Origin: an uncultured Phycisphaerales bacterium
GTDB taxonomy: Bacteria; Planctomycetota; B15-G4; CAYZWU01
Reading direction: 5' to 3'
Assembly: GCA_964542475.1 (NCBI GenBank)
Contig: CAZIUL010000005.1
Coordinates: 91,066 to 155,065 of the forward strand
Length of the DNA stretch: 64,000 nt
Positions 32,686 to 64,000 of this stretch are shown here, one piece after another. The translations under genes and the position numbers were made by a program. Numbering within the stretch: position 1 is the first letter of the stretch; each line of letters opens with the position of its first letter. Below the pieces are notes generated by a model. The model made no database searches. It saw nothing but the letters and a program-made list of their open reading frames with translations, and had not been told where the DNA came from.

Positions 32686-32757
32686 TGCGTTGCGAGATCC
32701 TCAACGAATCCCCTGAGGTTGAGGATCGTCTCCCGGCATGAAACGCAGGCACAGCGC

Positions 32758-32800: not shown

Positions 32801-33790
32801 AAACTCGAGATCGGGAAGCTCCTTCTCTTGAACCAGTTTCACGGTTAACAAGATGACATGGTTCTTGTTGTCTTTGTCCTTGCCGGGGATGGCATAGATC
32901 ATGGAACCGGTGTCTTTTAGAATGGCCATGGTTTCCATTTCCACCGTTTTTGTGGCTGCTCTGGCAACGGGGCCGTGCACGGTTTCGATCTCTTCGATGG
33001 GCCGCTGGATCATCATGTTTTTTGAGGACAGGTTGAGGCCGATATTATTTTCCTGGAGCAGGGAAGCCCTGACATCAATGATGAGACCTTCCTGGAGAAT
33101 TTCTATTTGGGGATCCACTATACTGTTTTTGGTGGGCTCAACATATACGTGGACTTCGTAACCGGTAATAAGGGCGATCTGGTTTATGATAGAAATTATT
33201 CCTTTCCGACCATTATTAACGAGGAGCCTGGGCGCGGAGAGAATGCAGCTTTCCTTGTCTTTTTGACATTCATCCAGCAGCTTCTTGCTTTTTTCGTCGG
33301 CAATGGTCAGAGCCACTTTTGACCCCTTCTCTCCCATTAACCGGTTGAAGGCACCCGGAGACAGCGCGTAGTAGGTGAGCTCCACCAGGAACTGCACATC
33401 GCCGGCTGAACGCCGCGTTTCAAGGAATGACTGAATCCATTCGTGTTGCTTGGGGCGAACCAGGGCGACCAGGGAGCTGGCGCCGATGGCCTTGACCTCT
33501 TCACGGTTTTCAACCAGGGGCGGTTGGATAAAGTCACGGATGATATCCGCCAGGTTTTCCGTGTGTTTCCACATTTCATCGGCCACATCGATTTTTTCCT
33601 CGTGATCACCGGTACCACTTTTCACAGCCTTTGAAATGAGCCGAATATGATTCCCGACATCGTATATTTGCAAGACCAGCGTGTTATCAGATGCGTTCAT
33701 GTCGTTAGTGATGGTCGTAACTTGATCCTGTGCCGCAAGGCACGAAAGCAGGATAAAAAAGAAAAATGTACATGAAAAACATCTAGTCAT
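32798..33790 (-). CDS. Hypothetical secreted protein, downstream of an ECF sigma/anti-sigma pair
   Basis: Signal peptide (FFFFILLSCLAAQDQ). No confident domain call. Confidence 0.45.
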   Translation of the reverse strand: MTRCFSCTFFFFILLSCLAAQDQVTTITNDMNASDNTLVLQIYDVGNHIRLISKAVKSGTGDHEEKIDVADEMWKHTENLADIIRDFIQPPLVENREEVKAIGASSLVALVRPKQHEWIQSFLETRRSAGDVQFLVELTYYALSPGAFNRLMGEKGSKVALTIADEKSKKLLDECQKDKESCILSAPRLLVNNGRKGIISIINQIALITGYEVHVYVEPTKNSIVDPQIEILQEGLIIDVRASLLQENNIGLNLSSKNMMIQRPIEEIETVHGPVARAATKTVEMETMAILKDTGSMIYAIPGKDKDNKNHVILLTVKLVQEKELPDLEF

Positions 33791-37151: not shown

Positions 37152-37190
37152 TGGACGGATCCGGGCCGTTCCAGGCGCGGGCTTTCCACG

Positions 37191-37232
37191 GGTTACGGCG
37201 CCGCAGCAGAAAAGGATGAAATATGCGGGTTA
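37191..37232 (-). repeat. Family A 3'-end element, copy 3 (29 nt downstream of the stop of the gene at 37261..38418)
   Basis: GGTTACGGCGCCGCAGCAGAAAAGGATGAAATATGCGGGTTA. Confidence 0.75.
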
Positions 37233-37260
37233 ACTGTTGTAACGAGTTCACTTCGGTTCC

Positions 37261-45970: not shown

Positions 45971-48100
45971 TTGTATCGAGGGCATACCATGGACTCTTTC
46001 CAGCTTGGTTTCGAAGAGGGAAAAAAACTGCTAGAACCGTACGGGATCCCGATCCTCGGACAAGTTGCAGCGTCAAGGGATGAAGCTCTGGCTGCCGCGG
46101 GCGAGCTGGGTTACCCGGTGGCGCTCAAATCCGTGTCCGAGAAGATCATCCACAAGACCGACGTTGGAGTGGTGTTTCTCGATCTCGTGAACGAGGCCGC
46201 TGCAGGGGATGCCTACGACAAGATCGTAGACAACGCGAGGCGGGCGGGCGCAGGCGAGCTGGACGGCGTTCTTGTGCAGAAGATGGCCAAATCGGGCTTT
46301 GAGCTGCTCGTGGGCGCCAAGCAGGACGCATGTTTCGGCACAGTGACCATGGTGGGTCACGGCGGCCGTTTCGTGGAGCTGTTCGAGGACGTGGCGCCCG
46401 GAGTCGGAGTTCTCACTCGCGAAGATGTGCTCCGCATGCTCTCGCACACAATGGCCGGCAGGATACTCGATGGCTTCCGCGGCCCGCCGCTTGACATGGA
46501 AGCGGTCGTCAGCCTTGCAATAAACGTATCCAGGTTCATGGATGAAAATCCTGAAATCCACGAGCTGGACCTGAACCCGGTCCTCGTGTACGAAAGCGGT
46601 TTCGCTGTTGTGGACGCCCGCCTGATCAAAGGCGATGCCGTTGAGTCCGCCCGCTGCACCGACCTTTCCGAAACACGCATGAAGAGCCTCGACTCGGTGT
46701 TCAACCCCGGATCCGTAGCTGTTGTCGGGGCATCCAGGCACGGCACGATCGGGGGGATCATCCTCAAAAACTCGAGCCGGGTCAAAAAGCTCTATCCCAT
46801 AAATCCGCGGTACAAGGAGCTGCTCAAAAGGCCGTGCTATCCGTCTTTGTCCAGCCTTACGGAAACCCCTGATGTGGGGGTCTTCGTGACAGGCGCGGAG
46901 AACGCGGTGAAGAGCTTCGAGGATTTCTGCGAAGCCGGAGGCAAGGGCGCGATCATCGTGAGCGACGGGTTTGCCGAGATCGGCAGGAGCGACCTCGAAG
47001 AGGAGCTCAAACGGATAAGCGTCAAGCACGATGTCGTGTATATCGGGCCCAACTGCCTCGGCGTGATCGACAACTTCTCCGGGCTGAACACGCTTTTTAT
47101 CCCGGAGCAGAGAACAGCCTCGCTTCGAGAACCGTGCGGGTTGGGGATTATTTCCCAGAGCGGCGGGATCGGTCTCGAGTTTCTGGAGATGCTGGAAGCT
47201 GACAACCTTTCGGTCGGCAGATGGATTTCCTGCGGGAACGCGAGCGGCGTGGACCTGGCCGAGATCTTGGCCCACATGGGTGACGATGACCGGATCGATA
47301 CGATAGCCCTGTACCTGGAAGGCATCAAGAACGGTCTCGGTTTCATGGAGGTTGGAAAGAGGGTGAGCCGCGGGAAGCCGGTGATCGTGATCAAGGGCGG
47401 GGTCGGCGGGGGGGCCGCAGCCACGATGTCGCACACCGCATCGCTCGCCGGGAGCTTCCAGGCGTTCAAGGCGTGCTGCGACCAGGCCGGTTTTTTTCTG
47501 GTCGAGGAGCTGACAGAGGATCCGAAGATCCTGATCAACATCATATCCATTCTCTCAACACAGCCCAGAGCCAATGGGAACCGCGTGGCGGTTGTCAGCG
47601 TGGGCGGAGGAGCTGCAATACTTCTCGCGGACCAGGTCACCGAGGAGGGAATGGAGCTTGCCGAGTTCGAGCCGGACACGGTGAAGAGTTTCCAGGGGCT
47701 ACTGGGTGCGAAAGCCAAAGAAGCATCGCCAGCAGAGAGGGATCGGATCATTGCGCGGCTCGGCAACAACCCGGTGGATCTTTTCGGCGAGTGCGATGAC
47801 GAGCGCCTGCTCGAGGCGATCAGAATCCTGGACCGGGATCCGAACACCGATATCATCCTCGTGGGACTTTACCTTCAGGTGCCGTACCTGTCCGAGTACC
47901 TCACGGAGCGTCTCGTGGACCTGAACCTGGAAATTACAAAACCGCTGATAATCTCGCCGCGCGGGTTCTCAAAGCACGTGCTCAGATCCCGGGAGTACCT
48001 CTACTCCAAGGATTTCCAAACCTACACGGTTCCCATGGTAAAGCCGTTAGCCATCGCCACAAAGATATGGCAGAGGTACGAGACCGATTTCACGCGGTAG
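45971..48100 (+). CDS. NDP-forming acyl-CoA synthetase, fused beta-alpha (ATP-grasp domain followed by CoA-binding/ligase domains; ACD/succinyl-CoA-synthetase-like)
   Basis: ATP-grasp N-half (ALKSVSEKIIHKTDVGVV). CoA-binding SVAVVGAS. The phospho-His region is in the C-half (GHTASLAG-like MSHTASLAG). Confidence 0.8.
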   Translation: MYRGHTMDSFQLGFEEGKKLLEPYGIPILGQVAASRDEALAAAGELGYPVALKSVSEKIIHKTDVGVVFLDLVNEAAAGDAYDKIVDNARRAGAGELDGVLVQKMAKSGFELLVGAKQDACFGTVTMVGHGGRFVELFEDVAPGVGVLTREDVLRMLSHTMAGRILDGFRGPPLDMEAVVSLAINVSRFMDENPEIHELDLNPVLVYESGFAVVDARLIKGDAVESARCTDLSETRMKSLDSVFNPGSVAVVGASRHGTIGGIILKNSSRVKKLYPINPRYKELLKRPCYPSLSSLTETPDVGVFVTGAENAVKSFEDFCEAGGKGAIIVSDGFAEIGRSDLEEELKRISVKHDVVYIGPNCLGVIDNFSGLNTLFIPEQRTASLREPCGLGIISQSGGIGLEFLEMLEADNLSVGRWISCGNASGVDLAEILAHMGDDDRIDTIALYLEGIKNGLGFMEVGKRVSRGKPVIVIKGGVGGGAAATMSHTASLAGSFQAFKACCDQAGFFLVEELTEDPKILINIISILSTQPRANGNRVAVVSVGGGAAILLADQVTEEGMELAEFEPDTVKSFQGLLGAKAKEASPAERDRIIARLGNNPVDLFGECDDERLLEAIRILDRDPNTDIILVGLYLQVPYLSEYLTERLVDLNLEITKPLIISPRGFSKHVLRSREYLYSKDFQTYTVPMVKPLAIATKIWQRYETDFTR

Positions 48101-48175
48101 GTGCGGTTCGCGAACTGCCCGGTTCATGCCAGGTTCCAGCCGGGCTCTTCTCTCCCGAAAGCTTGACCCCTCTCT

Positions 48176-48208
48176 GCCGCAGCAGAAGAGTATGAAATAA
48201 GCGGGCTA
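48176..48208 (-). repeat. Family A 3'-end element, copy 4 (truncated; contains the TAG stop of the gene at 48206..48991)
   Basis: GCCGCAGCAGAAGAGTATGAAATAAGCGGGCTA. Confidence 0.65.
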
Positions 48209-48991
48209 CAGCCCCAGCGCTTTGATCTCCTGTTCGAAACGGGAAGGGTTTATCTCCAGAAGCCAGCCTTCGCCGTATGAATCCTGGAGTACTTCTTCAG
48301 GATCCGCGAGCACCTTTTCGTTCACCTTTACCACGCTGCCGGAGAGAGGGGACCAGATCACGTGCGACCTCAGGTCCGCTGTGAACAGCTGCAGGCACAT
48401 GCTTCCCTGGCGGAGTTCGTCGCCGACCGAGGGCATGTCCACGGTCAGTACCTTGCCGATCATGAGAAGGAACGGGCGTTCAACCCCGATGAGCACGTTG
48501 CCGCTCTTCCGGCGCATCATCCAGGTGTGCCCGCCGATTCCATTGAACGCGTTGGCCGGCTTCCGCTCGCCTCTTCCGATGAACTCTTCGGGTTCAGCCG
48601 CTGTCCCGGCTCCTTCCCCGCCAACGAGCTGGGCCGCGCGTTTCACAACCCCCCTCAGCTCCGACTTGGTGAACGGCTTGGAAACATAGTCGAACGCGCC
48701 GAGCTGCATGGCCTGGAGCGCGGTGTTGATGGTGGCGTACCCCGTGACCATGATGATGGGGATCCCTGCATGCTTCGACTTGACCTCCTTCATGAGCTCC
48801 AGCCCGTCCATATCAGGCATCATCAGATCCGTCAGGATGATATGAACCGTTTCCTTTTTCAGGATTTTGAGCGCGTCCTCGGCGGACAGCACCTTGAACA
48901 CTTTGTCCGTGTCCTGTCTCAGGTGCCTCTCAGCGCTGTCGAGCACGATCTGTTCGTCGTCAACCACTAAAATGTTCAATTCTGTTTCCAT
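48206..48991 (-). CDS. Response regulator: CheY-like receiver fused to a GcvH-like (glycine-cleavage H / lipoyl-domain fold) C-terminal domain that lacks the lipoyl-lysine
   Basis: Receiver: VVDDE…D(54)LMMPDMDG…K. C-terminal SPLSGSVVKVNEKVLADPEEVLQDSYGEGWLLEI matches the GcvH C-terminus, but the ESVKA lipoylation site is replaced by TADLRS. Confidence 0.8.
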   Translation of the reverse strand: METELNILVVDDEQIVLDSAERHLRQDTDKVFKVLSAEDALKILKKETVHIILTDLMMPDMDGLELMKEVKSKHAGIPIIMVTGYATINTALQAMQLGAFDYVSKPFTKSELRGVVKRAAQLVGGEGAGTAAEPEEFIGRGERKPANAFNGIGGHTWMMRRKSGNVLIGVERPFLLMIGKVLTVDMPSVGDELRQGSMCLQLFTADLRSHVIWSPLSGSVVKVNEKVLADPEEVLQDSYGEGWLLEINPSRFEQEIKALGL

Positions 48992-51393: not shown

Positions 51394-51517
51394 TCCTGGA
51401 GGTCGGCAGTCCCTTGTAGCGTGTGTTCATTACCGGCGCCGACGGAGCGGCGCCCTCCATTGTTTAACCGACGCATTCACTTTATCCTGGAGGGCGGCAG
51501 TCCCTTGCCGCCTCTTT
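51394..51517. repeat. Family D GC-rich structured repeat, copy 1
   Basis: …CCGGCGCCGACGGAGCGGCGCCCTCCATTGTTTAACCG…CTGGAGGGCGGCAGTCCCTTGCCGCCTCTT. Stems: GGCGCCG/CGGCGCC and GGGCGGC/GCCGCC. Confidence 0.75.
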
Positions 51518-51558
51518 TCTTCCCTGAACCCAGAACGCCTTAACCGCATTATTACCGA

Positions 51559-51948
51559 CTAATGATAGTCATGTGTCTGCTGCACCACCTTCACGCCTGT
51601 TTTGTTTTCTATGTACTTCGCCATGTCGTCCGCGCTGGCGTAGGGGCATTCCGGCATGGCTTTCACCATGCAGGTGCTCATGTACACCGCATCAGGCTTG
51701 GTTTCGGACTGTTTTATGTTCAGCCCAATGTTCGGCGGGGTGGAGCGCCCGGGGCACTGGCACCTTACGAAACCGATGACGCGTGCTTCCTCGTCGAAGT
51801 TGCCTTCGCCGAGCGCGGCCGCTTTCAGGCAGCGCCACTCTCCGGGGCAGCCGTAGCCCGAGTCCATGTAAGCTCCGCATCCGACTACTATCACGTTTTT
51901 CATCTGTTTATCCTTGGTTTGATTGAAAGAGCCTGCTGCTTTGCTCAA
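51559..51948 (-). CDS. CGGC-domain protein (Cys-rich, redox/Fe-S-like)
   Basis: VVGCGAYMDSGYGCPGEWRC…CQCPG…CPYA. The likely start is MKNVIVVG at about 51900. Confidence 0.65.
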   Translation of the reverse strand: MSKAAGSFNQTKDKQMKNVIVVGCGAYMDSGYGCPGEWRCLKAAALGEGNFDEEARVIGFVRCQCPGRSTPPNIGLNIKQSETKPDAVYMSTCMVKAMPECPYASADDMAKYIENKTGVKVVQQTHDYH

Positions 51949-51977
51949 CGAAAAACGAGCTGTCGGCCCAGTCTGAT

Positions 51978-52556
51978 TTATTTGGTAAGAAACCGATCCA
52001 GGACCTTCTTCGATTGCGCTTCCACTGTTTCGTGGATGCTGTTTCCATGGGTGTCCATGGTCACGATCACGGGGAACTCCTTCGCTTGTACGACCCAGAA
52101 CGCTTCAGGGGTTCCGAGCTCTTCAAGCAGGTGGACATCGAGCACCTCCTCTATTGCCACTGCTGTAGAGGTCCCGCAGCCGCCCACCGCATGGAAGTAA
52201 ACAGCGCCGAGCCTTTGGCACGCTTCCATGGTCTTTTTCCCCATGCCGCCCTTGCCGATCACGCCGCGCACACCGTAGCTTTCGATGACCTTTGCCTGGT
52301 ACGGCTCTTCGCGTATGCTCGTGGTGGGGCCGGCGGCAACGAAAGACCACTTGCCGTCCTCGTTCTTTACAACCGGGCCGCAGTGATAGATCACGCCTTG
52401 GGCGAGAAGGTCGTCCAAGAAGTCCGGGCGCTCTTCAACCATCAGCTTGTGAGCAGCGTCGCGTGCGGTCACCATGACGCCGGAGAGAAGCACCGTGTCC
52501 CCTACCTTCAGGGATCTGATTTTTTCATCGGATATGGGAATGTCTATTTTAATCAT
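51978..52556 (-). CDS. fumB: Class I (Fe-S) fumarate hydratase, beta subunit (C-terminal domain type)
   Basis: Fe-S hydro-lyase beta fold (…GPTTSIREEPY…GKGGMG…). Overlaps the alpha subunit gene by 8 nt. Confidence 0.85.
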   Translation of the reverse strand: MIKIDIPISDEKIRSLKVGDTVLLSGVMVTARDAAHKLMVEERPDFLDDLLAQGVIYHCGPVVKNEDGKWSFVAAGPTTSIREEPYQAKVIESYGVRGVIGKGGMGKKTMEACQRLGAVYFHAVGGCGTSTAVAIEEVLDVHLLEELGTPEAFWVVQAKEFPVIVTMDTHGNSIHETVEAQSKKVLDRFLTK

Positions 52557-53421
52557 AGCTGGCTTCTCCGTTTTTACACGTCATTGTTTTCCGCCTGCAT
52601 GCCCAGCACATGTAGGAGACCGAAACATAGAAGGTGGCGGGATGGCGGTGTTGCTTGGCAGCAAAAACGTTGAGCACCGTGGTTTTTCCGCCGAACCCCA
52701 TGGGACCTATTCCAAGCTCGTTGAGCTCGGTCAACAGCCTGTTTTCGAGATTTGCCAGGTCGGGATCCAGGTTGACCGAGTCGAACTTCCGGAAGAACTG
52801 CTCCTTGCCGAGCATGTATGAGGTAGTGCGGTCGCCCCCGATGCCGACGCCGATAATGCCCGGGCTGCACCCTTTGCCCTGGGCCTTGAACACGGCGTCG
52901 AGCACACACCTCCTGACACCGTCGAGATCGCGTCCCGCGCCCAGCGCCGCGTCGGGAAGCTTGTACTGGGCGCTCACGTTTTCGCTGCCCCCTCCCTTTT
53001 GCATGAGCTTGACCAGGGTCTGGTCCTTGTCCCATTGTTTGAACGAGACATAGGGCGTGTTGACGCCTACGTTGTTCCCCGTGTTTTTGCCTGTGACAGG
53101 GTCAACCGCGTTCGGCCTGAGCAACAGATCCTTTGTGGCCCTTTCTGCCGCGGCCTCCACGGCCTTCCGGAACATGACGGTGTCGGTTCCCTGTGGATGA
53201 TACACGTAAAGTATGAGCGATCCCGTGTCCTGACAGATGGGAGTCACCGCTTCTCTGGCCATCTCGACGTTGTCAAGTATTGCCTGGAAGGTGTTGGCCG
53301 GCGTGGATCCGGCCTCCTCCTTTGCCAGGGCTTCCTGCAGCGCGGCTTCCACATCGTGTGACAGGTCGGTGCTCGAACTTTTTATCAGGTGATAAAGCTG
53401 GTTGACAACTGTTTCGTTCAT
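52549..53421 (-). CDS. fumA: Class I (Fe-S) fumarate hydratase, alpha subunit
   Basis: Conserved CQDTGS Fe-S ligand region and catalytic-domain blocks. Gene pair arrangement as in two-subunit class I fumarases. Confidence 0.85.
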   Translation of the reverse strand: MNETVVNQLYHLIKSSSTDLSHDVEAALQEALAKEEAGSTPANTFQAILDNVEMAREAVTPICQDTGSLILYVYHPQGTDTVMFRKAVEAAAERATKDLLLRPNAVDPVTGKNTGNNVGVNTPYVSFKQWDKDQTLVKLMQKGGGSENVSAQYKLPDAALGAGRDLDGVRRCVLDAVFKAQGKGCSPGIIGVGIGGDRTTSYMLGKEQFFRKFDSVNLDPDLANLENRLLTELNELGIGPMGFGGKTTVLNVFAAKQHRHPATFYVSVSYMCWACRRKTMTCKNGEASYD

Positions 53422-53630
53422 GACACTCCTCTCTGTAAACGCCGGTTATCGTTGACAGCAGCCATTCTATTGAATCTCGACACTTCTTTCCTCAATGTAA
53501 TAAGGTTTGTTTCGATTTTTTCCCGTGTATAATTCACGGTTTTCAATCGGTTGCGCGCGAAGCGTTTTTTTGTGTGTGTGAGGACACCCCCTTCGTTTAT
53601 TGAAGGGAACACGTTGTTCGAGGAGGCATC

Positions 53631-54809
53631 ATGATACGCGAGAAGATTGAGCAGACCTACGGCATTCTTGACGAGATGAACATCGACATGTGGATGATAT
53701 TCGCACGCGAAAGCGCGGTCATCTCAGACCCGGCTATCGAGCTCGTGGTCGGCACCGAGTGCACGTGGCAGTCAGCGTTCGTTTACACGCGGGACAGGAA
53801 ATCGTACGCAATCGTGGGCAACCTGGACGAGGCGAGGTTCAAGGGCCTCGGGGTCTTCGACGACGTTCGCTCGTACGTGACCGGAATCAAGGAGACGCTG
53901 CTGGACCTGTTCAAGACGCTGAACCCGTCCAGGTTCGCGCTCAACATATCAAAGAACGACTACATGGCGGATGGGCTCACATACGGAATGTTCCAGCTCT
54001 TGCAGCAGCATCTCGCGGGTACCGAGTGGGCAGACCGCTGGGTTCCATCCGAGAAGATCGTCGCGGCGTTGCGCGGCCGCAAGTCGTCCACGGAGCAGGA
54101 GCGCATACGCAAGGCCGTTGAGATGACCGAGGAGATCTACTCGAAAGTCACCGGTTTTTTGAAGCCCGGCAGGACCGAGAAGGAGGTGGCCGCGTTCATC
54201 CTGAAACAGGTGGACGAAGCAGGGATCGAGACGGCATGGAACCGCTCCGAATGCCCCGCGGTGTTCACCGGCCCCGAATCCGCGGGCGCGCACTGCGGGC
54301 CCACGGACAGGCCCATGGAGCCGGGGCACATCATGAACATCGACTTCGGCGTCAAAATCGAAGGGTTCTGTTCGGATATCCAGCGGACCTGGTACTTCCT
54401 GAAGGAGGGTGAGAAGGAGGCTCCCGATACCGTGAAGAAGGCGTTTCAGACCATCGTGGATTCCATACGGACGGGCGCTGAAAAGATCCGGCCCGGCATG
54501 ACAGGGCTCGAAGTGGACACCATCGTGCGAAGCTTCATAACGGACAGCGGCTATCCCGAGTACCCGCATGCAACAGGCCACCAGGTCGGCCGCTCGGCGC
54601 ATGACGGGGCCGCGACCCTTGCGCCGGAGTGGGAGCGGTACGGCGAGATCCCGCACATGAAGATGGAAGAAGGGCAGGTCTACACCATAGAGCCGCGCAT
54701 CCCGGTAGAGGCCCACGGCGTGGCCACATCCGAGGAGATCATCGTTGTGACGAAGGATGGCGGAAAGTTCCTGTCCCACCCGCAGACCGAGCTGTTTTAT
54801 GTCGGATAG
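53631..54809 (+). CDS. M24-family metallopeptidase (Xaa-Pro aminopeptidase/creatinase-like)
   Basis: Pita-bread fold metal ligands D…D…H…E…E (NIDFGVKIEGFCSDIQRT…HATGHQVGRS…YTIEP…). Confidence 0.8.
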   Translation: MIREKIEQTYGILDEMNIDMWMIFARESAVISDPAIELVVGTECTWQSAFVYTRDRKSYAIVGNLDEARFKGLGVFDDVRSYVTGIKETLLDLFKTLNPSRFALNISKNDYMADGLTYGMFQLLQQHLAGTEWADRWVPSEKIVAALRGRKSSTEQERIRKAVEMTEEIYSKVTGFLKPGRTEKEVAAFILKQVDEAGIETAWNRSECPAVFTGPESAGAHCGPTDRPMEPGHIMNIDFGVKIEGFCSDIQRTWYFLKEGEKEAPDTVKKAFQTIVDSIRTGAEKIRPGMTGLEVDTIVRSFITDSGYPEYPHATGHQVGRSAHDGAATLAPEWERYGEIPHMKMEEGQVYTIEPRIPVEAHGVATSEEIIVVTKDGGKFLSHPQTELFYVG

Positions 54810-54848
54810 ACCGCATGGTTCATAACCATCTGCTGCGGCGTTGTAAAC
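54807..54848 (+). repeat. Family A 3'-end element, copy 5 (diverged; plus orientation; begins with the TAG stop of the M24 peptidase gene)
   Basis: TAGACCGCATGGTTCATAACCATCTGCTGCGGCGTTGTAAAC, aligned against gene-sense copies 1-4 TAACCCGCATATTTCATCCTCTTCTGCTGCGGCACCGTAAAC. Confidence 0.6.
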
Positions 54849-54858
54849 AGCGCCGCGG

Positions 54859-56217
54859 CTACTCTGCCTGAGAGGCGATCTTTTTCGCGTCGATTCTGTC
54901 GGTCACGAACTTGAACACCATGAGGGCCAGGAAAGCGGTGATGCCTACACCTACCCAGAAGAACCATATATAATGGGCGTGATCATAGGCGTGGGCTTGT
55001 TCCGCTTCCGGCATGGCTGCCACCACATCCGGCGCAGGGCAGAACTTGTCGAGCAGGCGCCCTGAAGCCGCAAAGCCGAATAGCCAGGACCAGGCAGTGG
55101 TCAGGTGCGAATATCCCATGTACATGCCCACCTCGCCGGGGGGCGCCTGTTTGGAGGCGTACTCGAGAAACCGCGGGGAAAGGAAACATTCCGCGGTTCC
55201 CTGCATGAAGATTCCGATTATCAGCATCAGTTCGATGGGGTGCAAGGAAATGGCAAGGAGCTGAATTCGTTCCGTACCCAGGTTTGGGGCGAGCGCCACG
55301 GGCAGGGCGGAAAAGGGGATGATGAAAAGAGCGATGCTGATGGAAGTTACCGGCCGAATCTTGCGCACGAACTGTGTGATGAGGACCACGAGACAGGTGA
55401 CCGTCAACGGATTCACGATGGCGATCCAACCCGGTTTGGAATAATCACCAACCATGCGGAACAAGTACTTGGGCATGGTTGCATAAAGCTGGCCTTGGAT
55501 CGCCCAGAACCCGCCGATGATGATTATCAGACATAAGAAGCGGATGTTTTTGAGTACCCTCCCCAGCCCGTTAAAAAGCTCAGCAACACTCTTGCCTTCG
55601 CCACTCCTATCCGTGGTTTTGAAAGAAAAAAAGATCACGATTAATCCAAGGAGTGAAACAAGCGCGGACAACAGGTTTACCGCCTGGAATCCGGTGATTC
55701 CGAGGTCCATCTCGTTTATGCTGATCCGGATAGGATCCGCCACTATCTTTGATATGGTTGATCCGATGTTTACAGCCATGTAAAAAAGAGAAAAGGCTCG
55801 GGCCCGGTTGGCGTCGGTCGAACACTTGGCAGTGGTGCCGGAAATGACGGGCTTTACAATGGCTCCTCCCAGCATGATCAATACAAGCGCAAGCACGGCC
55901 GCCCACTTCTCCGGTACCGCGCCGAGCATGCCGTACCCGACAGATCCGAGGGCGAAAGCGATCATCAGGGCTTTACGAAACCCGATCTTGTCGGACAAGG
56001 CTCCCAAGAAAGTGGGCATGAAATAGAGAAGAAAGGCAAAACCGCCCACGAGGTCACCGGATTCTTCATCCGTGAATCCCACGTCCTCTGTCAGGTAAGC
56101 CACCATAAAAAGGAAGGCGCCGTAATAAGCCAACCGCTCGAGTAGCTCAGAGAAGTTGGCTACCCAGAAAACCTTGGGGAACTTCCAGGACATGCTAGCA
56201 GCGGTTTTTTCTTCCAT
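54859..56217 (-). CDS. POT/PTR2-family proton-dependent di/tripeptide transporter (MFS)
   Basis: PTR2 signature ELLERLAYYG near the N-terminus. About 12 transmembrane helices. Confidence 0.85.
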   Translation of the reverse strand: MEEKTAASMSWKFPKVFWVANFSELLERLAYYGAFLFMVAYLTEDVGFTDEESGDLVGGFAFLLYFMPTFLGALSDKIGFRKALMIAFALGSVGYGMLGAVPEKWAAVLALVLIMLGGAIVKPVISGTTAKCSTDANRARAFSLFYMAVNIGSTISKIVADPIRISINEMDLGITGFQAVNLLSALVSLLGLIVIFFSFKTTDRSGEGKSVAELFNGLGRVLKNIRFLCLIIIIGGFWAIQGQLYATMPKYLFRMVGDYSKPGWIAIVNPLTVTCLVVLITQFVRKIRPVTSISIALFIIPFSALPVALAPNLGTERIQLLAISLHPIELMLIIGIFMQGTAECFLSPRFLEYASKQAPPGEVGMYMGYSHLTTAWSWLFGFAASGRLLDKFCPAPDVVAAMPEAEQAHAYDHAHYIWFFWVGVGITAFLALMVFKFVTDRIDAKKIASQAE

Positions 56218-56298
56218 TGGTTGTTCCTTCGTTTTTTAATTCCGGGGACGGGGTATTCATTCTCCCCAGCCCGACCGGTCCGACGAGCCCGACAAAAC

Positions 56299-57543
56299 TT
56301 AATCCCCGAAAAGCTGCACCAGGTTCAGAACGGTGCATGCCGAAAGCGCCAGCGACCTGTCCGCTATCCACTCCTGCGGGCCGTGGAAGTTCACTCCTCC
56401 GGCGAAGACGTTGGGTGTTGGCATGCCCATTGCCGTGAGCCGCGATCCGTCCGTGCCCCCGCGTATGGGGTCGACGCTCGGCGTGAGCCCGGTCATCTCG
56501 ATCGCCTTTTTCAGGCTGTCCGTGATCTCGGCATGCTTTGAAAGCTCGTCGTACATGTTCCTGTACTGCTCGACGATCTCCACCGTGACCTTGAGCTTGG
56601 GCTCCTCAGCCATGAGTGCCTTGCCGATCTCTTTCAAGCGCTCGCACCGTTCCTCCAGGATCTTGACCGTGAAGTCCCTTATGATCAGGTTGGCCTTGCA
56701 CTCGGCCGCGTCTCCCGAGACATCGGTCGGGTGGTAGAAGCCGTCCCTTCCGTCCGTGCATTCAGGCGTTTCAGCCATGGGAAGGCGCGCCAGGAACTTG
56801 CCCATGTAAGTTAGCGCGTTCACCATCTTGCCTTTTGCGTAGCCGGGGTGCACGGAAACGCCCTTGAACGTGACGATGCCCTTGTTCGCGGAGAAGGTCT
56901 CGATGTTCATCTCGCCCGGGAAACCGCCGTCGAGCGTGAACGCAAAAGGCGATGCGAAATCCTTCATCGGGAACTTGTTCGCTCCCCTGCCCACCTCCTC
57001 GTCCGGGTTGAAGCAGATCCTGAGAGTGGGCCGCTTGATCTCCGGGTCCGAGAGCAGCACCTCGACGGCAGCCATGATCGCCGCGATGCCCGCCTTGTCA
57101 TCAGCACCGAGCAGCGTGGTCCCGTCCGCCGTGATGATGGTGTCGCCCTTGCATTTCAGGAGCTCCGGTGAATCTTTCGGATCGATTGTAACGCCGTCCT
57201 TGAGCTTGATGGGGGAGCAGTCGTAGTTTTTGTGGAACTGCGGCTTGACATCGGTTCCTGAAAACGCGGGTGCTGTGTCCATGTGGGCGCAGAGCCCAAC
57301 CAGGCCCTTGGCGTTCCCTTTCAGTTCTGCCCTCACATACCCGTTCTCATCCATTTCAGCGCCTTTTACGCCGAGCTCCTTCAGCTCATTAACCAGGTGC
57401 TTGCCGAGCGCGAGCTGCTTGTCCGTGCTAGGACATTTTTCGCATTCCTCGTCCGATTGGGTGTCGAACTTCACGTATTCGAGAAACCTGTCCAGTATCT
57501 TGGTGTTTTTCAGGATTTCTTCGGGTTTGTTGAATGTGCGCAT
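56299..57543 (-). CDS. pepT: Peptidase T (tripeptide aminopeptidase, M20B)
   Basis: M20 metal-binding blocks (CAHMDT; GADDKAGIAAI; NPDEEVG). Length 414 aa. Confidence 0.9.
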   Translation of the reverse strand: MRTFNKPEEILKNTKILDRFLEYVKFDTQSDEECEKCPSTDKQLALGKHLVNELKELGVKGAEMDENGYVRAELKGNAKGLVGLCAHMDTAPAFSGTDVKPQFHKNYDCSPIKLKDGVTIDPKDSPELLKCKGDTIITADGTTLLGADDKAGIAAIMAAVEVLLSDPEIKRPTLRICFNPDEEVGRGANKFPMKDFASPFAFTLDGGFPGEMNIETFSANKGIVTFKGVSVHPGYAKGKMVNALTYMGKFLARLPMAETPECTDGRDGFYHPTDVSGDAAECKANLIIRDFTVKILEERCERLKEIGKALMAEEPKLKVTVEIVEQYRNMYDELSKHAEITDSLKKAIEMTGLTPSVDPIRGGTDGSRLTAMGMPTPNVFAGGVNFHGPQEWIADRSLALSACTVLNLVQLFGD

Positions 57544-57650
57544 GAAAATCTCTCCTTACGTGGCAATGAATTATCCGCTCTGCTCTCTATAATCTGTCCG
57601 GAACCCGCCATGGTAGCAGAGGGGGAGGAAGAGGACACGAATGAAATGCC

Positions 57651-57756
57651 AAGAGGGCGAAAGATTTTTCGCCCCTACGGCGGCTGACTGAGCGGCGCCC
57701 TCCACTGTTTAGCATGCCGTTTTACCTGGAGGGCGGCAGTCTCTTGCCGCCTCTTG
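57651..57756. repeat. Family D GC-rich structured repeat, copy 2 (preceded by hairpin GGGCGAAAGATTTTTCGCCC)
   Basis: CTACGGCGGCTGACTGAGCGGCGCCCTCCACTGTTTAGC…CTGGAGGGCGGCAGTCTCTTGCCGCCTCTT. Confidence 0.75.
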
Positions 57757-57857
57757 ATCGGTTTGTGTGAGTGTCTCCGGTTGTTGCAATTCAACAACAC
57801 TTTCCCACAGAAAGCGGACCAGGCAAGAATGCCTAACCCGAACATAGCCTAGTCTCA

Positions 57858-59450
57858 TCAAGGCTGGTAAATTTCAGCAGTATCGCTTACCGAGGCAGGG
57901 TTGCCGCTGAATCCGCCCGCGAGCAGCCAGGTCCCATCCGGCAGGGGCGCGAAACCGAAAGCGAAGCGGGTCATGTTCAGGCTTGGCCCGGCGCTCCACG
58001 TGCCGCTCGACAGGTTGTAGATCTCGCTTGAGCCCAGGATCATCGGGTTGTTGAGGTCTCCCGCGCCTCCGGCCATGGCGATCACGGTGCCGTTGTCCCT
58101 GGTCAGCATCTGGCACCCGATGCGTGATGTTGTCATGTCACCGGTCGATGAAAATGTCTGCCCGGACGAATCGACAAGGCTGCAGGTTGTTGTCAGGTCG
58201 TAGTCGATGAACGTGCCCGTGGCCCCGCTCACTATCAGGACCTTGCCGCTCGGCAGAAGATGGGCCGAATGAGCAGTCCTTGTGCGAGTCATCGATATTG
58301 GCGAGCCGAAAGAACCGATGCCCGTGTTAGGCGTGTAGAGCTCGGCCTTGTCGAGAAGCTCCGGAATCTTTATGCCGAACAGTTCGAAGTATGAAACGCC
58401 GCCGGCCACAATTACCTTGGCGTTGCCGAGCCGGGTCGCGGTGAACGCCACCCTGGGCTTGGCCATGTTCGGGCCGCTGCCGAAGCTGCTCGTTGCGGGA
58501 TCGAAGATCTCGGTCGTTTTCTGCATGGTGTTGATCATCGAGGTCTCGTCCGTGGGATCGGTGTATCCGCCGATCACGAGCACGCGGCCGTCCTCCAGAA
58601 GAACCGGCTGGTACATGATCCTCGTCAGCGACATTGCTCCTGCGATGGAGAAGCTGCTTGTGGCCGGGTCGAATACCCACGATGTGGTGGTGGGGTCGTT
58701 GGACCCGTTCATTCCGCCGAGAAAGAGCACGCGCCCGTCATCCAAAACGGTTGCCGTCATTCCCGTGCGGGGTGCGGGCAGCGAATAGGGAGCAGCCGCG
58801 AACCGCTCGAGGCCCGGTTCGTATAAAAGAACTCCGGCCGTGACATAGGTGCCCGCGCCGGTCACAACAGTGCCGCCCGCCATGATCACTGTCCCGTCAG
58901 GAAGCCCGGCTGTTGCAGCGCCTGCTATCCGGTCCGGCATCGTTTCCAGGGTGTATGCAAAGCTGTTGGGATATGCGAACGTCACCCTGTACAGGTTGGA
59001 TATGTCCAGGATCGGGGTTGCCATGTTGTTGAGCAGGCAGTTTTGAAAGTTAAGGTTCAACCCGTCGAGCAGGGGATCGTTCGGCGCGAACAGGGCCAGC
59101 TCCTTTGTGCCGTCAGCTTCGAAGTAATCCACGAAACCCGGTATGGTGGCGCAGAAGGTCAGAAGATCAAACCCCACGTCCAGAGTGCACCACGGCGTGA
59201 CAGTCGGTCCTGTTGTCAAGGACATGAGAAGGTAGTAGCTCCCGTTCGGCGGGCCCTCGAGGTTTATTGTGAACGTCTGTCCGATCCCTCCGCCGTCCAT
59301 GCTGATGGACATCTCCTGTGGAGCTGCCATGCCCATGAAAAGACAGCAGAGGAGCGGAACTAGGAACAAGGCTTTCTTGGCTTGGGGGGGGAACATATCA
59401 GCTCCTTTTTTCAAAGCGGTTTTATTAGGCGGATGGTGTAGGCTTTCCAA
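57858..59450 (-). CDS. Secreted Kelch-repeat beta-propeller protein (galactose-oxidase-central-domain-like)
   Basis: Signal peptide after MFPPQAKK. Repeated …DGRVL.LGG…/…AGG… Kelch blades. Confidence 0.65.
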   Translation of the reverse strand: MESLHHPPNKTALKKGADMFPPQAKKALFLVPLLCCLFMGMAAPQEMSISMDGGGIGQTFTINLEGPPNGSYYLLMSLTTGPTVTPWCTLDVGFDLLTFCATIPGFVDYFEADGTKELALFAPNDPLLDGLNLNFQNCLLNNMATPILDISNLYRVTFAYPNSFAYTLETMPDRIAGAATAGLPDGTVIMAGGTVVTGAGTYVTAGVLLYEPGLERFAAAPYSLPAPRTGMTATVLDDGRVLFLGGMNGSNDPTTTSWVFDPATSSFSIAGAMSLTRIMYQPVLLEDGRVLVIGGYTDPTDETSMINTMQKTTEIFDPATSSFGSGPNMAKPRVAFTATRLGNAKVIVAGGVSYFELFGIKIPELLDKAELYTPNTGIGSFGSPISMTRTRTAHSAHLLPSGKVLIVSGATGTFIDYDLTTTCSLVDSSGQTFSSTGDMTTSRIGCQMLTRDNGTVIAMAGGAGDLNNPMILGSSEIYNLSSGTWSAGPSLNMTRFAFGFAPLPDGTWLLAGGFSGNPASVSDTAEIYQP

Positions 59451-59616
59451 AACATCACATTAATATCATACAACGCATTGGTTTTCAAGGCGGGAACCTT
59501 CCCGGAAATTTCCCGGGCCGGGCCCGGCCAAGCCCGGCACGGCATGGGTGCGGCCCGGGAACGCAGCGACTTGCGATACGGGCGAGGTTGCCGCGTGTAT
59601 TCACCGACACTCCGGA

Positions 59617-61431
59617 TCAGTATGTGATCGTTGTCTCACCGATGTTGCTCGTCCCCCGGAACAGACCGGTTCCTTGATCGAAAGTGGCCACCTGGGATTG
59701 GAATATGATGCCGTTGAGCCCGAGCGGAATCTGAATCTCGAGGGAACCCAGCCCGGCGGTATCCAGGCTTTGCGAGTTGATGATGATGAACTGCAGCAGA
59801 ACCGGGAAGCCGTAATATGTGAATGTCGTGTTATCCAGCGAAACGAGAAGGTGCGAAAAATCATCCGCGCCGCCGCCGAAGCTCCATGCGAACATTTGAC
59901 CTTCCGGGGCAAGATCAGCAACACTGAGGACCGGCGGATCGTTTTCGATGTAGGTTAAGTACCCCGGATTGCTCGTTTCCCATGCGTTGGAGACCCTGAC
60001 CTCGGTTATTCCTAGCATCGACGCTTCAGGCGCGGGGAAAAAGATCGTTTGATCATCATCGATCGTAAATCCGGCCGGGGCGCTCAAGCACACGTCTCCG
60101 CACTGAACCTCTGTTGCCAGGGAAAAGTTGTCTCCGGTCAAAATGACATTCCCGCCCATGAAGGATTTGACAAGGGCCGGGCTGACCTGGCTGATCTCAG
60201 GGGTCATCGAAGGGGCTATCGCCTCCATGGCCGCCTCCACATCAAGCCTTCCGTGTTTGACCCAGGTTCCCACGTCGACTGCAGAGGTTTGAATCGCGTT
60301 GCGCACGGTCCACGCGTTAGCCTGGGTCCTCTGGCTGCCAAGGAGCGAGTAAAGAAGCACTGCCGCGCCCGCGACATGCGGGCAGGCCATGGATGTGCCG
60401 TTGGATATCGTGTAACCGCCGGAGTTCCATGTGGACACGATGTCCTTGCCCGGCGCCGCCACGCTGACCCAGCTTCCGTATGTTGAAAACGATGCCCTGG
60501 AATCGTTGGACTTTGATGCGGCCACCGCGATGACACGGGAGTACGCCGCGGGGTAGTGTTTCGAGGTGTTGCCGCTGTTGCCGGCCGCTGCAACGCATAC
60601 GCAGCCGGCGCTGTACGCCGCATCGATCGCTGTTTCCATGCTTGAGCTTTTACTCGTGCTCCCGAACGACATGGAGATCACGAGCGCGCCCGAGCTCTTT
60701 GCCTCGTTGATGCACTGGATTATCGTGCTTACGGCAAATGCGTCCTTGCCGGCCCTGTAAGACAGGAACCTGCAGTCATGAGCCACACCCGCAACACCGA
60801 TGAGGTTGTTCGTGGCGGCTGCCGCGATCCCCGCGGTGAGCGTTCCGTGGCCGTTTGTGTCGTTGGGATTCGAATCGTTGCCGTAAAAGTCGTAGCCGCC
60901 GGCATAGTTGGGAACCAGGTCGGAATGGTTCATGTCCACGCCCGTGTCGATCAAGGCCACGAGCGCTCCGGGCGATCCTGTGAAATGGTCCCATGCATCA
61001 TCGCACTCGATCTTTTTCGGGCCCCATTGCTGGCTCCAGAAAGGGTCGTCCGGCACGTGGAAAGGTTTGTACACGAAGTTCGGCTCGGCAAAGAGCACGC
61101 CCGGCATGCTGCCGAGCGCCTCGATCGTATCGTCGAGCGATCCGTTGTCGAAACGAAGGCGTTCGATTTCATGCGGAAGCGCCTCTATCTTCCGTGCCCC
61201 GGCCTGCTCGCGAACCTCGGCCCTGGCCGCGGCGTGCACAACGCTTTTTTTGAAGCGCACCAGCACCTCTCCCTTGACAACCCAGGCGCCTTTCCATTTT
61301 TCAAGCTCAAGAACGGGGTCGGGATTTTCGCCCGCCTGGGCGTACACCGCAACGGGCGCCGACAAAACAAGAGCGCAGAACACAGCGGCGGATAATACAA
61401 TAGCGATGGGCCTCGTGCGGTGTGATAACAT
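59617..61431 (-). CDS. Secreted S8-family subtilisin-like serine peptidase with C-terminal extension domains
   Basis: Signal peptide. Catalytic triad blocks: VALIDTGVD (Asp), NGHGTLTAG (His), GTSMACPHVAG (Ser). Confidence 0.9.
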   Translation of the reverse strand: MLSHRTRPIAIVLSAAVFCALVLSAPVAVYAQAGENPDPVLELEKWKGAWVVKGEVLVRFKKSVVHAAARAEVREQAGARKIEALPHEIERLRFDNGSLDDTIEALGSMPGVLFAEPNFVYKPFHVPDDPFWSQQWGPKKIECDDAWDHFTGSPGALVALIDTGVDMNHSDLVPNYAGGYDFYGNDSNPNDTNGHGTLTAGIAAAATNNLIGVAGVAHDCRFLSYRAGKDAFAVSTIIQCINEAKSSGALVISMSFGSTSKSSSMETAIDAAYSAGCVCVAAAGNSGNTSKHYPAAYSRVIAVAASKSNDSRASFSTYGSWVSVAAPGKDIVSTWNSGGYTISNGTSMACPHVAGAAVLLYSLLGSQRTQANAWTVRNAIQTSAVDVGTWVKHGRLDVEAAMEAIAPSMTPEISQVSPALVKSFMGGNVILTGDNFSLATEVQCGDVCLSAPAGFTIDDDQTIFFPAPEASMLGITEVRVSNAWETSNPGYLTYIENDPPVLSVADLAPEGQMFAWSFGGGADDFSHLLVSLDNTTFTYYGFPVLLQFIIINSQSLDTAGLGSLEIQIPLGLNGIIFQSQVATFDQGTGLFRGTSNIGETTITY

Positions 61432-61581
61432 AACCAGTTCCCCTTCATGAACCTCGTAGGATCAACAACTATTAATATTATCATCAATTGCCTGAAAAAC
61501 CATTAATATTTTTTAATGTTTTATTTTTGAGAAGACGTTTTTAAGGGGGGTCGTTATTAGCGCTTCCTCTCCATTATTCCC

Positions 61582-61792
61582 ACGGAGGGCGGACACATAG
61601 GTCCGCCCCTACGGCGGCTGACGGAGCGGCGCCCTACACTGTTAATAGGTCGGTTGACCATCTTCTGGAGGGCGGCACTCTGTTGCCGCCTCTTCGGTTC
61701 CGGCGCCGACAAAGCGGCGCCCTCCACTGTTTAACCGGTGCTTGCCGTTTCTTCTGGAGGGCGGCAGTCTCTTGCCGCCTCTTCTCTTCTCT
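61582..61792. repeat. Family D GC-rich structured repeat, copy 3 (two tandem units; leader hairpin GGGCGGAC-acatag-GTCCGCCC)
   Basis: Two units ending CTGGAGGGCGGCACTCTGTTGCCGCCTCTTC and CTGGAGGGCGGCAGTCTCTTGCCGCCTCTTC. Each is preceded by (C)GGCGCCGAC.AGCGGCGCCCT(A/C)CACTGTT(A)A. Confidence 0.8.
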
Positions 61793-61879: not shown

Positions 61880-63954
61880 ATGCCCATCGACAAAGACGAC
61901 AAAAACACCTCCCGGGAAAGGGCGGAAAAGCTCTTCCGCGAGTTTCTCGCCCGCCGCGAGGCCGACGACGAGGTGACGGCGGACGAGTATTTCGCCAAAC
62001 ACCCCGAACTCGAGCATGAGCTGAAGGAGCTTTTCAGCACACTGAAGACTGATGAAACGGAGGAGATAGACCTCGGAGAAGGTAAAGCCCCTGCATCCGG
62101 ACCTGCCAAGGACCGGGAAACCATCGGCGACTTCCGCATCATCCGCGAGATCGGCTCGGGCGGCATGGGCACGGTGTACGAGGCGGAGCAGCTTTCGTTG
62201 AAGCGGCGTGTGGCCCTGAAGGTGCTGCCTTCGCACCTGAGTTTTTCTGACCAGGCAGTGTGTAAGTTCCAGCGCGAGGCTGAAGCCGGCGGCAGGCAGC
62301 AGCACGCTGGTATCGTGGGAGTGATTGCGGTGGGCGAGGAGGAAGGCGTCCACTACATTGCCCAGGAGCTGATCAAGGGCGGGTTCACACTGGCTGACAG
62401 GCTCGGGGATCTCGGCAGAGGGAAGCGGGCTACCTGCGCGAGACAGCAGGGCTTGCAGCGGAGATCGCGGACGCGCTGCAGCACGCGCACTCCACAGGCG
62501 TGATCCACCGGGATGTGAAGCCTTCTAACATCCTTCTGACCCCGGAAGGCGCGCCCAAGGTGACCGACTTCGGCCTTGCCCGCATCGAGGATGCGCTCGC
62601 GCTCTCCCGCACCGGGGATTTCGCGGGCACCCCGTACTACATGTCACCCGAACAGGCAGCCTCGCGCCGTATCGGCATCGACCATCGCACCGACATTTTT
62701 TCGCTCGGTGCCACCCTGTACGAGATGCTGACTCTCAAGCTTCCCTTCGAAGGTGACACCAGCCAGCAGGTCCTGCGGAAAATTCTGCTCGAAGACCCGC
62801 CTGACCCGCGAAAGCTCCGCTCGCGCACCCCGCGCGACCTGGCTGTGATCTGCCTCAAGGCCATGGAGAAGAGGCCGGATCACCGTTACCAGAGCATGGA
62901 GGAGTTATCAGCGGACCTGCGTCGTTTTACGAACAACGAACCGATTGTAGCGAAGCCGCCCGGCCCGATCGCGAGGGGCGTGAAATGGGTGCGGCGCCAT
63001 CCCGTGGTAAGTGTTGCGGGAGCGGTTGCGGTTGTGGCGCTTTTGGTGATCTCTGGTTTATGGTGGCGCGCAACAGAGGCGGAGCAGGCAACCGCTGCCG
63101 CGCTTACACGGATCAAAGAGGAGAAGGCTGCTACTGCTGCAGAGCGCGACCGTGCAATAGCAGCCGAGAAAACGGCAAAACAACTCTCTTACTACGCTTT
63201 TCTTCGCTCAACTCAAGATGCCTTGAATGCGAATAACTTTGCGGAGGCGAGGCGAACGCACGAGCTCTGCCCGGAGGAGTACCGCGAATGGGAATGGCAC
63301 CACTTGGCCTTGAGGCTTGATCAGAGCTTGCAGACGTTGAAGGGGCATGAAAACGGAGTAGACTCCGTCGCCTGGAACCCTACAGGCACGCGGATCGTGT
63401 CAGGATCGGGGGATAATACCCTTCGCGTTTGGGCTACGGCTACTACCGGCGAGTGTGTACAAACGCTTACGGGACATGAAAACGGGGTGACCTCCGTTGC
63501 CTGGAATCCTACGGGCACCCGTATCGTGTCCGCTGAGCCTTATGGGGTTTTTCGCATCTGGGACGCAGCCACTGGGGACTGCATACAAACGGTTACGGGG
63601 AATGAAAGCTATGTGTCCTCCCTCGACTGGAATCCGGCTGGCACGCTGATTGTGTCTGGGGCTCTGAATAGGACCGTTCGCGTCTGGGATGCGTCTAATG
63701 GACGGTGCGTGCAAACGTTAGCTGGGCATGAAAGCGGAGTGACCTCTGTTGCCTGGAATCCTTCAGGCACGCGGATCGCGTCCGGGTCATATGATAGTAC
63801 AATTCGTATCTGGGATGCTGCCACTGGTCAGTGCGTTCAAACGATCACGGGGCATGATGATATGTGGGGGGGGATCTCCGTTGCCTGGAACCCTGCTGGC
63901 ACGCGGATCGTGTCAGGGTCGGATGACGAGACCGTTCGCGTCTGGGACGCGTAG
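61880..63954 (+). pseudogene. Ser/Thr protein kinase with transmembrane helix, coiled coil and C-terminal WD40 repeats. The reading frame is broken by a frameshift near 62410-62425.
   Basis: Kinase subdomains I-V (GSGGMGTVYEA…ALKVL) are in the frame of ORF 61880..62503. Subdomains VIb-XI (VIHRDVKPSNILL…DFGLA…GTPYYMSPE) continue in a different frame (ORF 62500..63954). The sequence …LGDLGR|EAGYLRETAGLAAEIADALQHAHSTG is recovered by a 1-nt shift. The gene ends with a TAG at 63952-63954. Confidence 0.55.
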
Positions 63955-64000
63955 AGCGGGCAGTGTCGCCAAACGCGTCAAGGGGATGAGAGGGATGTAT

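Follow-up and report, generated by a model that had tools for sequence, protein, structure and literature searches.

Repeats at three intergenic loci in a 64,000-nucleotide stretch of DNA from an uncultured Phycisphaerales bacterium (contig CAZIUL010000005.1; the whole stretch is referred to here as the window) are probably small arrays of a repetitive extragenic palindromic (REP)-type element, organised as REP dimers in the manner of bacterial interspersed mosaic elements (BIMEs). We favour this interpretation because the features of the repeats match those of tagged REPs, and because the alternation of orientation and linker along each array is the BIME pattern. A REP- or BIME-like nature had been suggested in an initial annotation of the sequence, and it is borne out in that the repeats are inverted copies of one module, with alternating orientations and linkers and compensatory changes in their stems, and that the same dimer recurs in genomes of the Planctomycetes-Verrucomicrobia-Chlamydiae (PVC) group.

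The repeat module and its arrays

The presence of copies at three intergenic loci, here named A, B and C, is confirmed both by direct reading of the sequence and by motif searches. The motif of the 3' hairpin, GGAGGGCGGCAGTCTCTTGCCGCC, is matched at up to three mismatches four times, on the plus strand only (51489, 57728, 61667 and 61756), and that of the 5' half, GAGCGGCGCCCTCCACTGTTTA, is matched at 51445, 57690, 61624 and 61712, again all on the plus strand; for each motif the expectation was zero, 100 shuffles giving no match. Repeat finding recovers the same copies as families D2, D7 and D9. Four full units could be aligned, namely A1 (51426–51517), B (57651–57756), C1 (61582–61694) and C2 (61695–61783), the last two being the tandem pair already recognised at 61582–61792. 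A degenerate half unit, A0, precedes A1. Every locus has such a leading hairpin, which had not previously been separated from the unit that follows: the degenerate one at 51394–51425, AGAGGGCGAAAGATTTTTCGCCC at 57653–57676 and GGAGGGCGGACACATAGGTCCGCCC at 61584–61607.

Once they are written in one orientation, the 11 modules of the window share a single plan. An unpaired foot, (T)GGAG, stands directly 5' of a 20-nt GC-rich hairpin that starts with GG and ends with CC, and that has a 7–8 bp stem, a loop of 4–6 nt and two invariant basal G-C pairs. The GGAG of the foot is invariant across the compared modules, and at least 90% of them have a T before it. Within a unit, the first hairpin represents the module on the minus strand (hairpin-CCCTCCA when read on the plus strand) and the second hairpin represents it on the plus strand (TGGAGGG-hairpin). 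Because its hairpins are one module in opposite orientations, the unit is a foot-to-foot inverted pair with a spacer of 22–28 nt, an arrangement present in all four units of the window. It is moreover a heterodimer in the sense used for REPINs, since the stems of its halves are not identical but differ at positions where the change is compensated (GGCGCCG/CGGCGCC as against GGCGGCA/TGCCGCC). In the alignment, the four units also have related spacers.

At each locus the leading module is joined tail to tail with the first unit, and all such tail-to-tail linkers are 0–11 nt long. The arrays comprise three modules at A (R0-L-R), three at B (R0-L-R) and five at C (R0-L-R-L-R), and display both of the alternations by which a BIME is recognised, that of orientation and that of linker type, short between tails and long between feet. 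The leading modules have feet of their own, AAGAG in B0 and CGGAG in C0, A0 being degenerate; B0 and C0 are each followed by CTAC, which is GTAG on the other strand.

A single-module covariance model, R1, was derived from alignment A3, with six window modules in its seed alignment. It gives seven strong matches (25–41 bits, E 2e-8 to 2e-4) and four weak ones (10–15 bits), at the three loci only; neither the remaining 51 kb of the window nor the 10 kb on its left side yields a convincing match. The parts of the arrays, with their R1 scores, are as follows.

51394–51425, plus strand: A0, degenerate module with the foot at its 5' end, TGGAG-GTCGGCA-GTCCCT-TGTAGCG (10.5 bits, E 1.7)
51432–51462, minus strand: A1-L, module with a perfect 7-bp stem, on the plus strand GGCGCCG-ACGGAG-CGGCGCC-CTCCA (40.4 bits, E 2.6e-8)
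51463–51484, no strand: A1 spacer between the feet, TTGTTTAACCGACGCATTCACTTTATCC region (from sequence and alignment)
51485–51515, plus strand: A1-R, module TGGAG-GGCGGCA-GTCCCT-TGCCGCC (40.8 bits, E 2e-8)
57653–57676, plus strand: B0, leading variant module AAGAG-GGCGAAAG-ATTT-TTCGCCC, then CTAC (11.4 bits, E 0.97)
57676–57707, minus strand: B1-L, module whose own stem is imperfect, on the plus strand GGCGGC-TGACTGA-GCGGCGCC-CTCCA (15.2 bits, E 0.1)
57724–57754, plus strand: B1-R, module TGGAG-GGCGGCA-GTCTCT-TGCCGCC (39.5 bits, E 4.2e-8)
61580–61610, plus strand: C0, leading module CGGAG-GGCGGAC-ACATAG-GTCCGCC, then CTAC (25.3 bits, E 2.2e-4)
61610–61641, minus strand: C1-L, module with foot GTAG instead of GGAG, on the plus strand GGCGGC-TGACGGA-GCGGCGCC-CTACA (10.3 bits, E 2)
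61663–61693, plus strand: C1-R, module TGGAG-GGCGGCA-CTCTGT-TGCCGCC (40.4 bits, E 2.5e-8)
61699–61729, minus strand: C2-L, module, on the plus strand GGCGCCG-ACAAAG-CGGCGCC-CTCCA (34.8 bits, E 7.3e-7)
61752–61782, plus strand: C2-R, module TGGAG-GGCGGCA-GTCTCT-TGCCGCC, deleted in the strain contig L004 described below (38.7 bits, E 7.1e-8)

Folding and covariation

The GGCGCCG…CGGCGCC hairpin that had been ascribed to every unit is perfect in A1 and C2 only. The left arm reads GGCGGC in B and C1, where it does not fit its own partner but is complementary to GCCGCC, the far right arm belonging to the 3' hairpin; in B the left arm of B1-L pairs in this way with the right arm of B1-R. As a result, B and C1 each adopt a single long hairpin as the fold of minimum energy. 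For C2 separate hairpins are preferred, and A1 has a nested minimum-energy fold but a centroid with separate hairpins. On either strand the units are more stable than shuffled sequences (z between −2.0 and −4.7).

Compensatory change in the hairpin stems is evident in two sets of modules. Across 42 modules, 94% of the cells in the stem are paired and both sides have changed in six of the eight pairs, a level of pairing reached in none of 500 shuffles and compared with 33–68% in slid controls. A second set consists of 21 partner modules, chosen by foot and position only and hence free of selection on the stem sequence; here the paired fraction of cells is 83% (68.5% in shuffles), and both sides have once more changed in six of the eight pairs. 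From the covariation in both sets we conclude that the hairpin is under selection to pair. Judged from sequence, such selection would fit single-stranded DNA and RNA alike, and covariation does not tell which.

The CTCCA…TGGAG pairing that had been proposed to close the unit as a long-range helix fares differently from the stems. Its two strands are the two feet of the dimer and, as the feet are invariant, the helix is beyond the reach of covariation; the sole informative case, C1, carries an uncompensated break (CCCTACA opposite TGGAGGG).

These results bear on the suggestion, also made in the initial annotation, of a small structured RNA family. On this view each unit of ∼90 nt would be a structured small RNA or a cis-regulatory RNA with three helices, formed by the 5' hairpin, CCCUCCA/UGGAGGG and the 3' hairpin. 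The stability of the units relative to shuffles and the covariation of their hairpin stems agree with such an RNA, and the three-helix form does appear in the centroid of the A1 plus strand and in the minimum-energy folds of the minus strands of A1 and C2. However, both strands fold equally well because the element is near-palindromic, and the middle helix is the one without covariation and with the break in C1. The spacer varies from 13 to 49 nt and differs in sequence between lineages, the units occur in tandem and as partial copies, a 30-nt deletion falls within a unit in one strain (see below), the gene context is different at each of the three loci, and no promoter-like site, in particular none resembling a sigma-70 promoter, adjoins any unit of the window. 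No Rfam family reaches its gathering threshold anywhere in the window, the best sub-threshold match at locus C being CC3552, at 17.9 bits against a threshold of 50. We therefore regard a structured RNA as improbable.

Distribution in other genomes

The 3' hairpin, as the pattern TGGAGGGCGGCA-N6-TGCCGCC, was sought in 185,579 species, each represented by a single genome, and at least 97 loci matched. The counts that follow are among the matches listed (97 loci). Seventy loci are labelled Kiritimatiellae, Lentisphaerae/Victivallales, Verrucomicrobiota/Opitutales, Planctomycetota, "PVC group" or Chlamydiota, eight are unlabelled but alike, and 19 are scattered over GC-rich genomes outside the PVC group. 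CCTCCA, the other foot, lies within 60 nt upstream in 35 of 88 PVC or unlabelled matches, compared with 0 of 19 non-PVC matches, and almost all of these 35 have, in the 20 nt preceding CCTCCA, a 7–8 bp hairpin with a different stem (for example GGCGCC, GGACGC or GGCGAC). The foot-to-foot arrangement is dominant (28 of 47 neighbouring module pairs, with spacers of 13–49 nt); the spacers are lineage-specific and unrelated between PVC lineages. Several contigs per metagenome-assembled genome (MAG) are matched. Outside the indexed matches, module density is 2.7 per 100 kb in the PVC loci, with still other stems, and zero over 125 kb of the non-PVC loci.

In the MAG JANYBP01 the palindrome reaches well past the modules. 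In an Opitutales MAG (CAXXNP01/OY762281; L037, L050, L052, L069, L070, L099 and L116) the dimer is embedded in a longer conserved repeat that extends on both sides for more than 200 nt in all, and may represent a composite that has formed around the REP dimer. Three contigs classed as viral in IMG/VR (L134/L141, L136 and L139) carry single TGGAG-hairpin modules with PVC-type loops, one contig having two copies. They are either sequences of PVC phages that contain the module or DNA of the hosts themselves.

A near-exact 30-nt pattern has no match in the species genomes, among whose representatives the source species is not included. A pattern with a five-nucleotide (N5) loop gave 20 metagenome matches (L010–L029) that lack the other half of the element, and these were set aside as chance matches.

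Relationship to known repeat families

Tagged REPs have stems of 6–9 bp, an unpaired tetranucleotide at one end, and an arrangement as head-to-head or tail-to-tail homo- and heterodimers with spacers of 20–100 bp; among PVC genomes, those of Opitutus terrae and Rhodopirellula baltica are REP-rich (Di Nocera et al. 2013, PMC3733652). The operational definition of a REP requires a GTAG or GTGG tag (Quentin et al. 2018, PMC6006769), and the window modules fit that definition except in their tag, which is GGAG. Like GTAG REPs, they are short GC-rich stem-loops, here with a stem of 7–8 bp, with a conserved unpaired tetranucleotide directly 5', and they are extragenic and multi-copy, most of them paired as inverted dimers (frequently heterodimers) across spacers of some tens of nucleotides, and are present in the PVC group. 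They are unlike GTAG REPs in their foot, (T)GGAG, since GTAG is the foot of a single one of the 11 window modules (C1-L) and otherwise appears only on the strand opposite to B0 and C0; in the lack of a flanked RAYT (REP-associated tyrosine transposase) gene, or REPtron, in the loci examined; and in having one stem type common to several classes and phyla. GGAG is one base away from GTAG and is absent from the tag variants listed in PMC3733652. The O. terrae REPs of that study differ in sequence from the window modules, because they encode other peptides.

GC-rich hairpins with a GTAG foot are found in the same genome, at 1235–1270 (minus strand), at 48096–48120 and at L127:15723–15748, between gene ends (for example GTAGAAGGGGCGGTTCGCGAACCGCCC and GTAGGGGCGCACCTGAGTATGCGCCCC). 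They suggest that the genome holds more than one family of tagged palindromes.

The units also resemble the REPINs of Pseudomonas (Bertels and Rainey 2011, PMC3116915), in which two inverted REPs with a short spacer act as one unit. B and C1 fold, as REPINs do, into one long hairpin, and the relatedness of the window spacers is as expected if the dimer is a copied unit. In contrast, A1 (in its centroid) and C2 form two separate hairpins, because their halves differ at compensated stem positions, and the RAYT partner of REPINs was not found in the loci examined here.

BIME-2 elements of E. coli reportedly consist of alternating Y and Z2 palindromic units with alternating linkers, as described by Gilson, Bachellier and colleagues. 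The window modules likewise alternate in orientation and in linker length (0–11 nt and 22–28 nt), and the number of units varies by locus, although their sequence is unrelated and the phylum is different. Finally, REPs with a CGTC tag, which are mainly alphaproteobacterial, have no dedicated transposase known (PMC3733652); they share with the present modules the property of being tagged hairpins without a known dedicated transposase, and differ from them in the sequence of the tag.

Searches of a paper library by literal sequence and by topic found no description of this family. The kind of element is itself ordinary and well known; it is the family that is new, and the understanding of REPs is unchanged by it. 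Its single unusual trait is that it is spread over the PVC superphylum with a foot foreign to both described REP superfamilies. Nevertheless, a broader proposal can be made tentatively, namely that the (T)GGAG hairpin and its foot-to-foot heterodimer form a third superfamily of tagged palindromes beside the GTAG and CGTC REPs. Such a superfamily would be ancient and PVC-wide (Planctomycetota and Verrucomicrobiota, the latter with Kiritimatiellia and Lentisphaeria), and would be maintained by some HUH enzyme or by a conserved host function rather than by a lineage-specific RAYT.

Gene context and a possible host function

Pfam scans, together with gene calls on identical contigs, place all three loci between called genes. 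Locus A follows the 3' end of a gene for a CGGC-domain protein. At locus B, a Kelch-repeat gene ends on one side and a peptidase T gene begins on the other, both on the minus strand, so that the unit as written is antisense to both; locus C lies between the divergent starts of genes for an S8 peptidase and a Ser/Thr kinase. The view that all copies lie at gene ends thus holds only in part; the three loci have nothing in common in their position relative to genes.

Contigs matching the window at more than 99.8% identity come from several JGI, ENA and Logan metagenome samples. One co-occurring strain (L004) lacks the final hairpin of locus C owing to a deletion of 30 nt that falls between two direct repeats of CGGCAAG (L004:3170–3190, corresponding to window 61748–61777), although an assembly artefact is also possible. 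The closest named homologues of the peptidase T belong to Planctomycetota MAGs, with 80% identity for a protein of a Planctomycetota bacterium and 67% for one of Phycisphaerae. In the closest relative found, whose peptidase T is 80% and S8 peptidase 44% identical to those of the window, no module is present in its 13 kb, including the regions upstream of the S8 peptidase and peptidase T genes; this relative is too diverged and rearranged to provide a true empty site. Locus C has no BLAST match among plasmids and phages.

Since the conservation of the module is unusually broad and a transposase is lacking, the main rival to a REP-type element is a signal in RNA or DNA selected by the PVC hosts, such as a factor-dependent or bidirectional terminator, a protective hairpin at mRNA 3' ends or the binding site of a conserved protein, which would have arisen or been kept by selection and would not be mobile. 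The conservation of foot and stem over several PVC classes and phyla is indeed unusual for a selfish repeat, some modules of other genomes (in L111 and L120) begin directly after a stop codon, modules with PVC-type loops are found on the three IMG/VR contigs, and no cognate transposase was found in the loci examined. The last hairpins of A and C, and only these, are flagged as terminator-like, by virtue of their C/T-rich tails; U-tracts are nevertheless absent, a terminator would have no obvious role between the divergent starts at locus C, and at locus B, where the unit is antisense to both neighbours, the Kelch gene has a terminator-like hairpin of its own (57840–57815). Tandem arrays, inverted heterodimers and variable spacers are typical of REPs and BIMEs, the deletion in L004 is tolerated at the strain level, and the nearest relative does without a module near the homologous genes. 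We consider a host-selected signal unlikely on balance.

Mobility and the question of a transposase

A RAYT-type Y1 transposase is the standard mobiliser of GTAG REPs. Genes of this type were sought with an HUH…YxxNP pattern, with tblastn, with a hidden Markov model built from 120 RAYT homologues and with Pfam scans of the sizeable open reading frames (ORFs) of the window.

Several observations weigh against a REP-type element. No Y1_Tnp or RAYT gene is found in the 64-kb window, in the 10 kb to its left or in L127. A single Y1_Tnp gene was detected in ∼750 kb of fetched loci (L103:2967–3728, 2.2e-15); its distance from a module is ∼1 kb, and the palindrome at its flanks is another one, CCCTACATAG-CCCCCGGCATGCCGGGGG. 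Neither an empty site nor a target-site duplication was seen, and mobilisation is a matter that we infer. Only three loci are present in ∼75 kb of the source genome, all within 10.4 kb. In addition, the foot is GGAG, and not the GTAG/GTGG or CGTC of the described REP superfamilies, and the stem GGCGGCA/TGCCGCC is conserved across classes and phyla, more broadly than is usual for REPs.

The L103 region itself (L103:2700–3728; Humisphaera sp. MAG JANXVV010000277.1) contains a PF01797 gene preceded by an inverted CCCTACATAG-CCCCCGGCATGCCGGGGG pair, in which there is a GGGGWSAS-like motif. From its sequence this appears to be a TIRYT- or REPtron-like unit, distinct from the TGGAG modules. The protein has thousands of close relatives in metagenomes; a homologue search with it gave only near relatives of Tepidisphaeraceae type, through which no module-flanked gene was reached.

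A different kind of mobility is implied if the units are miniature inverted-repeat transposable elements (MITEs), with the DDE transposase of some insertion sequence binding the inverted modules as double-stranded terminal repeats. Their inverted-repeat architecture would suit a MITE, as would the extension of the palindrome beyond the modules in JANYBP01 and the inclusion of the dimer in a longer repeat in the Opitutales MAG. The conserved feet, however, point inward rather than forming the outer ends, and direct reading of the sequence gives no target-site duplication around the window units. All-against-all clustering of the ORFs of the 97 listed loci links no protein family to the modules, and no transposase family recurs beside them there. 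Moreover, because the stem changes are compensatory, what is conserved is the folded hairpin and not the sequence of the duplex. A MITE is on this evidence very improbable.

Three further identities were tried and rejected. Integron attC sites are excluded by the absence of RYYYAAC/GTTRRRY core sites at the unit ends and by the separation of the loci by several genes on both strands; IS200/IS605 ends by the hairpins being inverted, not on one strand; and a Shine-Dalgarno/anti-Shine-Dalgarno riboregulator by the lack of a start codon after GGAGG.

For the REP-type element that we favour, the following mechanism can be envisaged. The dimer would have spread as a non-autonomous unit, its folded hairpin and 5' foot being recognised on single-stranded DNA by a trans-acting HUH/Y1 transposase of RAYT type. 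Tandem growth could have come about by local slippage or by recombination between modules. Resident copies would be mostly neutral; those that are transcribed would give stable hairpins, which could block 3' exonucleases or attenuate read-through.

Other features of the window

Pfam matches identify a full dissimilatory sulfur set at 4734–27451 (sat, aprBA, qmo-like, dsrAB, dsrN-like, dsrC and dsrMKJOP-like genes), and sulfatase genes lie just left of the window. The affinity of the peptidase T with proteins of Planctomycetota MAGs and the adjoining sulfatase genes indicate that the source is probably a planctomycete; a planctomycete with dsr genes would be noteworthy in itself.

Other repeats are present besides the modules. 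Five tandem copies of ∼126–132 nt at 63326–63957 lie inside an ORF (62500–63954); these are coding repeats and not a DNA element, since identical contigs call a 737-residue Ser/Thr kinase with WD40 repeats. Intergenic clusters of CACGGAT direct repeats with ∼10-nt spacing follow purine-rich runs at 9807–9872, 29915–30005 and 31283–31338 (families D3 and D8), and could, from their sequence, be binding sites for a regulator. A repeat of ∼40–60 nt, GCCGCAGCAGAAGAGGATGAAATATGCGGGTTA, stands just 3' of minus-strand genes at 30034–30102, 32741–32809, 37173–37241 and 48175–48217, and at least two copies end on the stop codon (at 30091 and 32798). A 51-nt repeat, with copies at 31108–31158 and 32634–32684 that are 96% identical, contains the hairpin GTCAGATCGGCTACGGCCTGAC. 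Finally, one strain contig (L130:2600–2720, which corresponds to window ∼1207–1245) contains a scaffold gap together with an expanded microsatellite of the hexamer GGGCAT; the window itself has only CGTGCCCGTGCCCAT there.

Implications

The GC-rich repeat of the window is explained as a REP/BIME-type element, and annotators need not call it a regulatory RNA. If its PVC-wide distribution is true, TGGAG followed by a 20-nt hairpin would provide a simple marker for intergenic repeats that have barely been catalogued in these bacteria, and the repeats might partly explain contig breaks and mis-binning in PVC MAGs. The family would then also be a test case for the persistence of REP-like families across phyla and for the enzyme, if any, that mobilises them.

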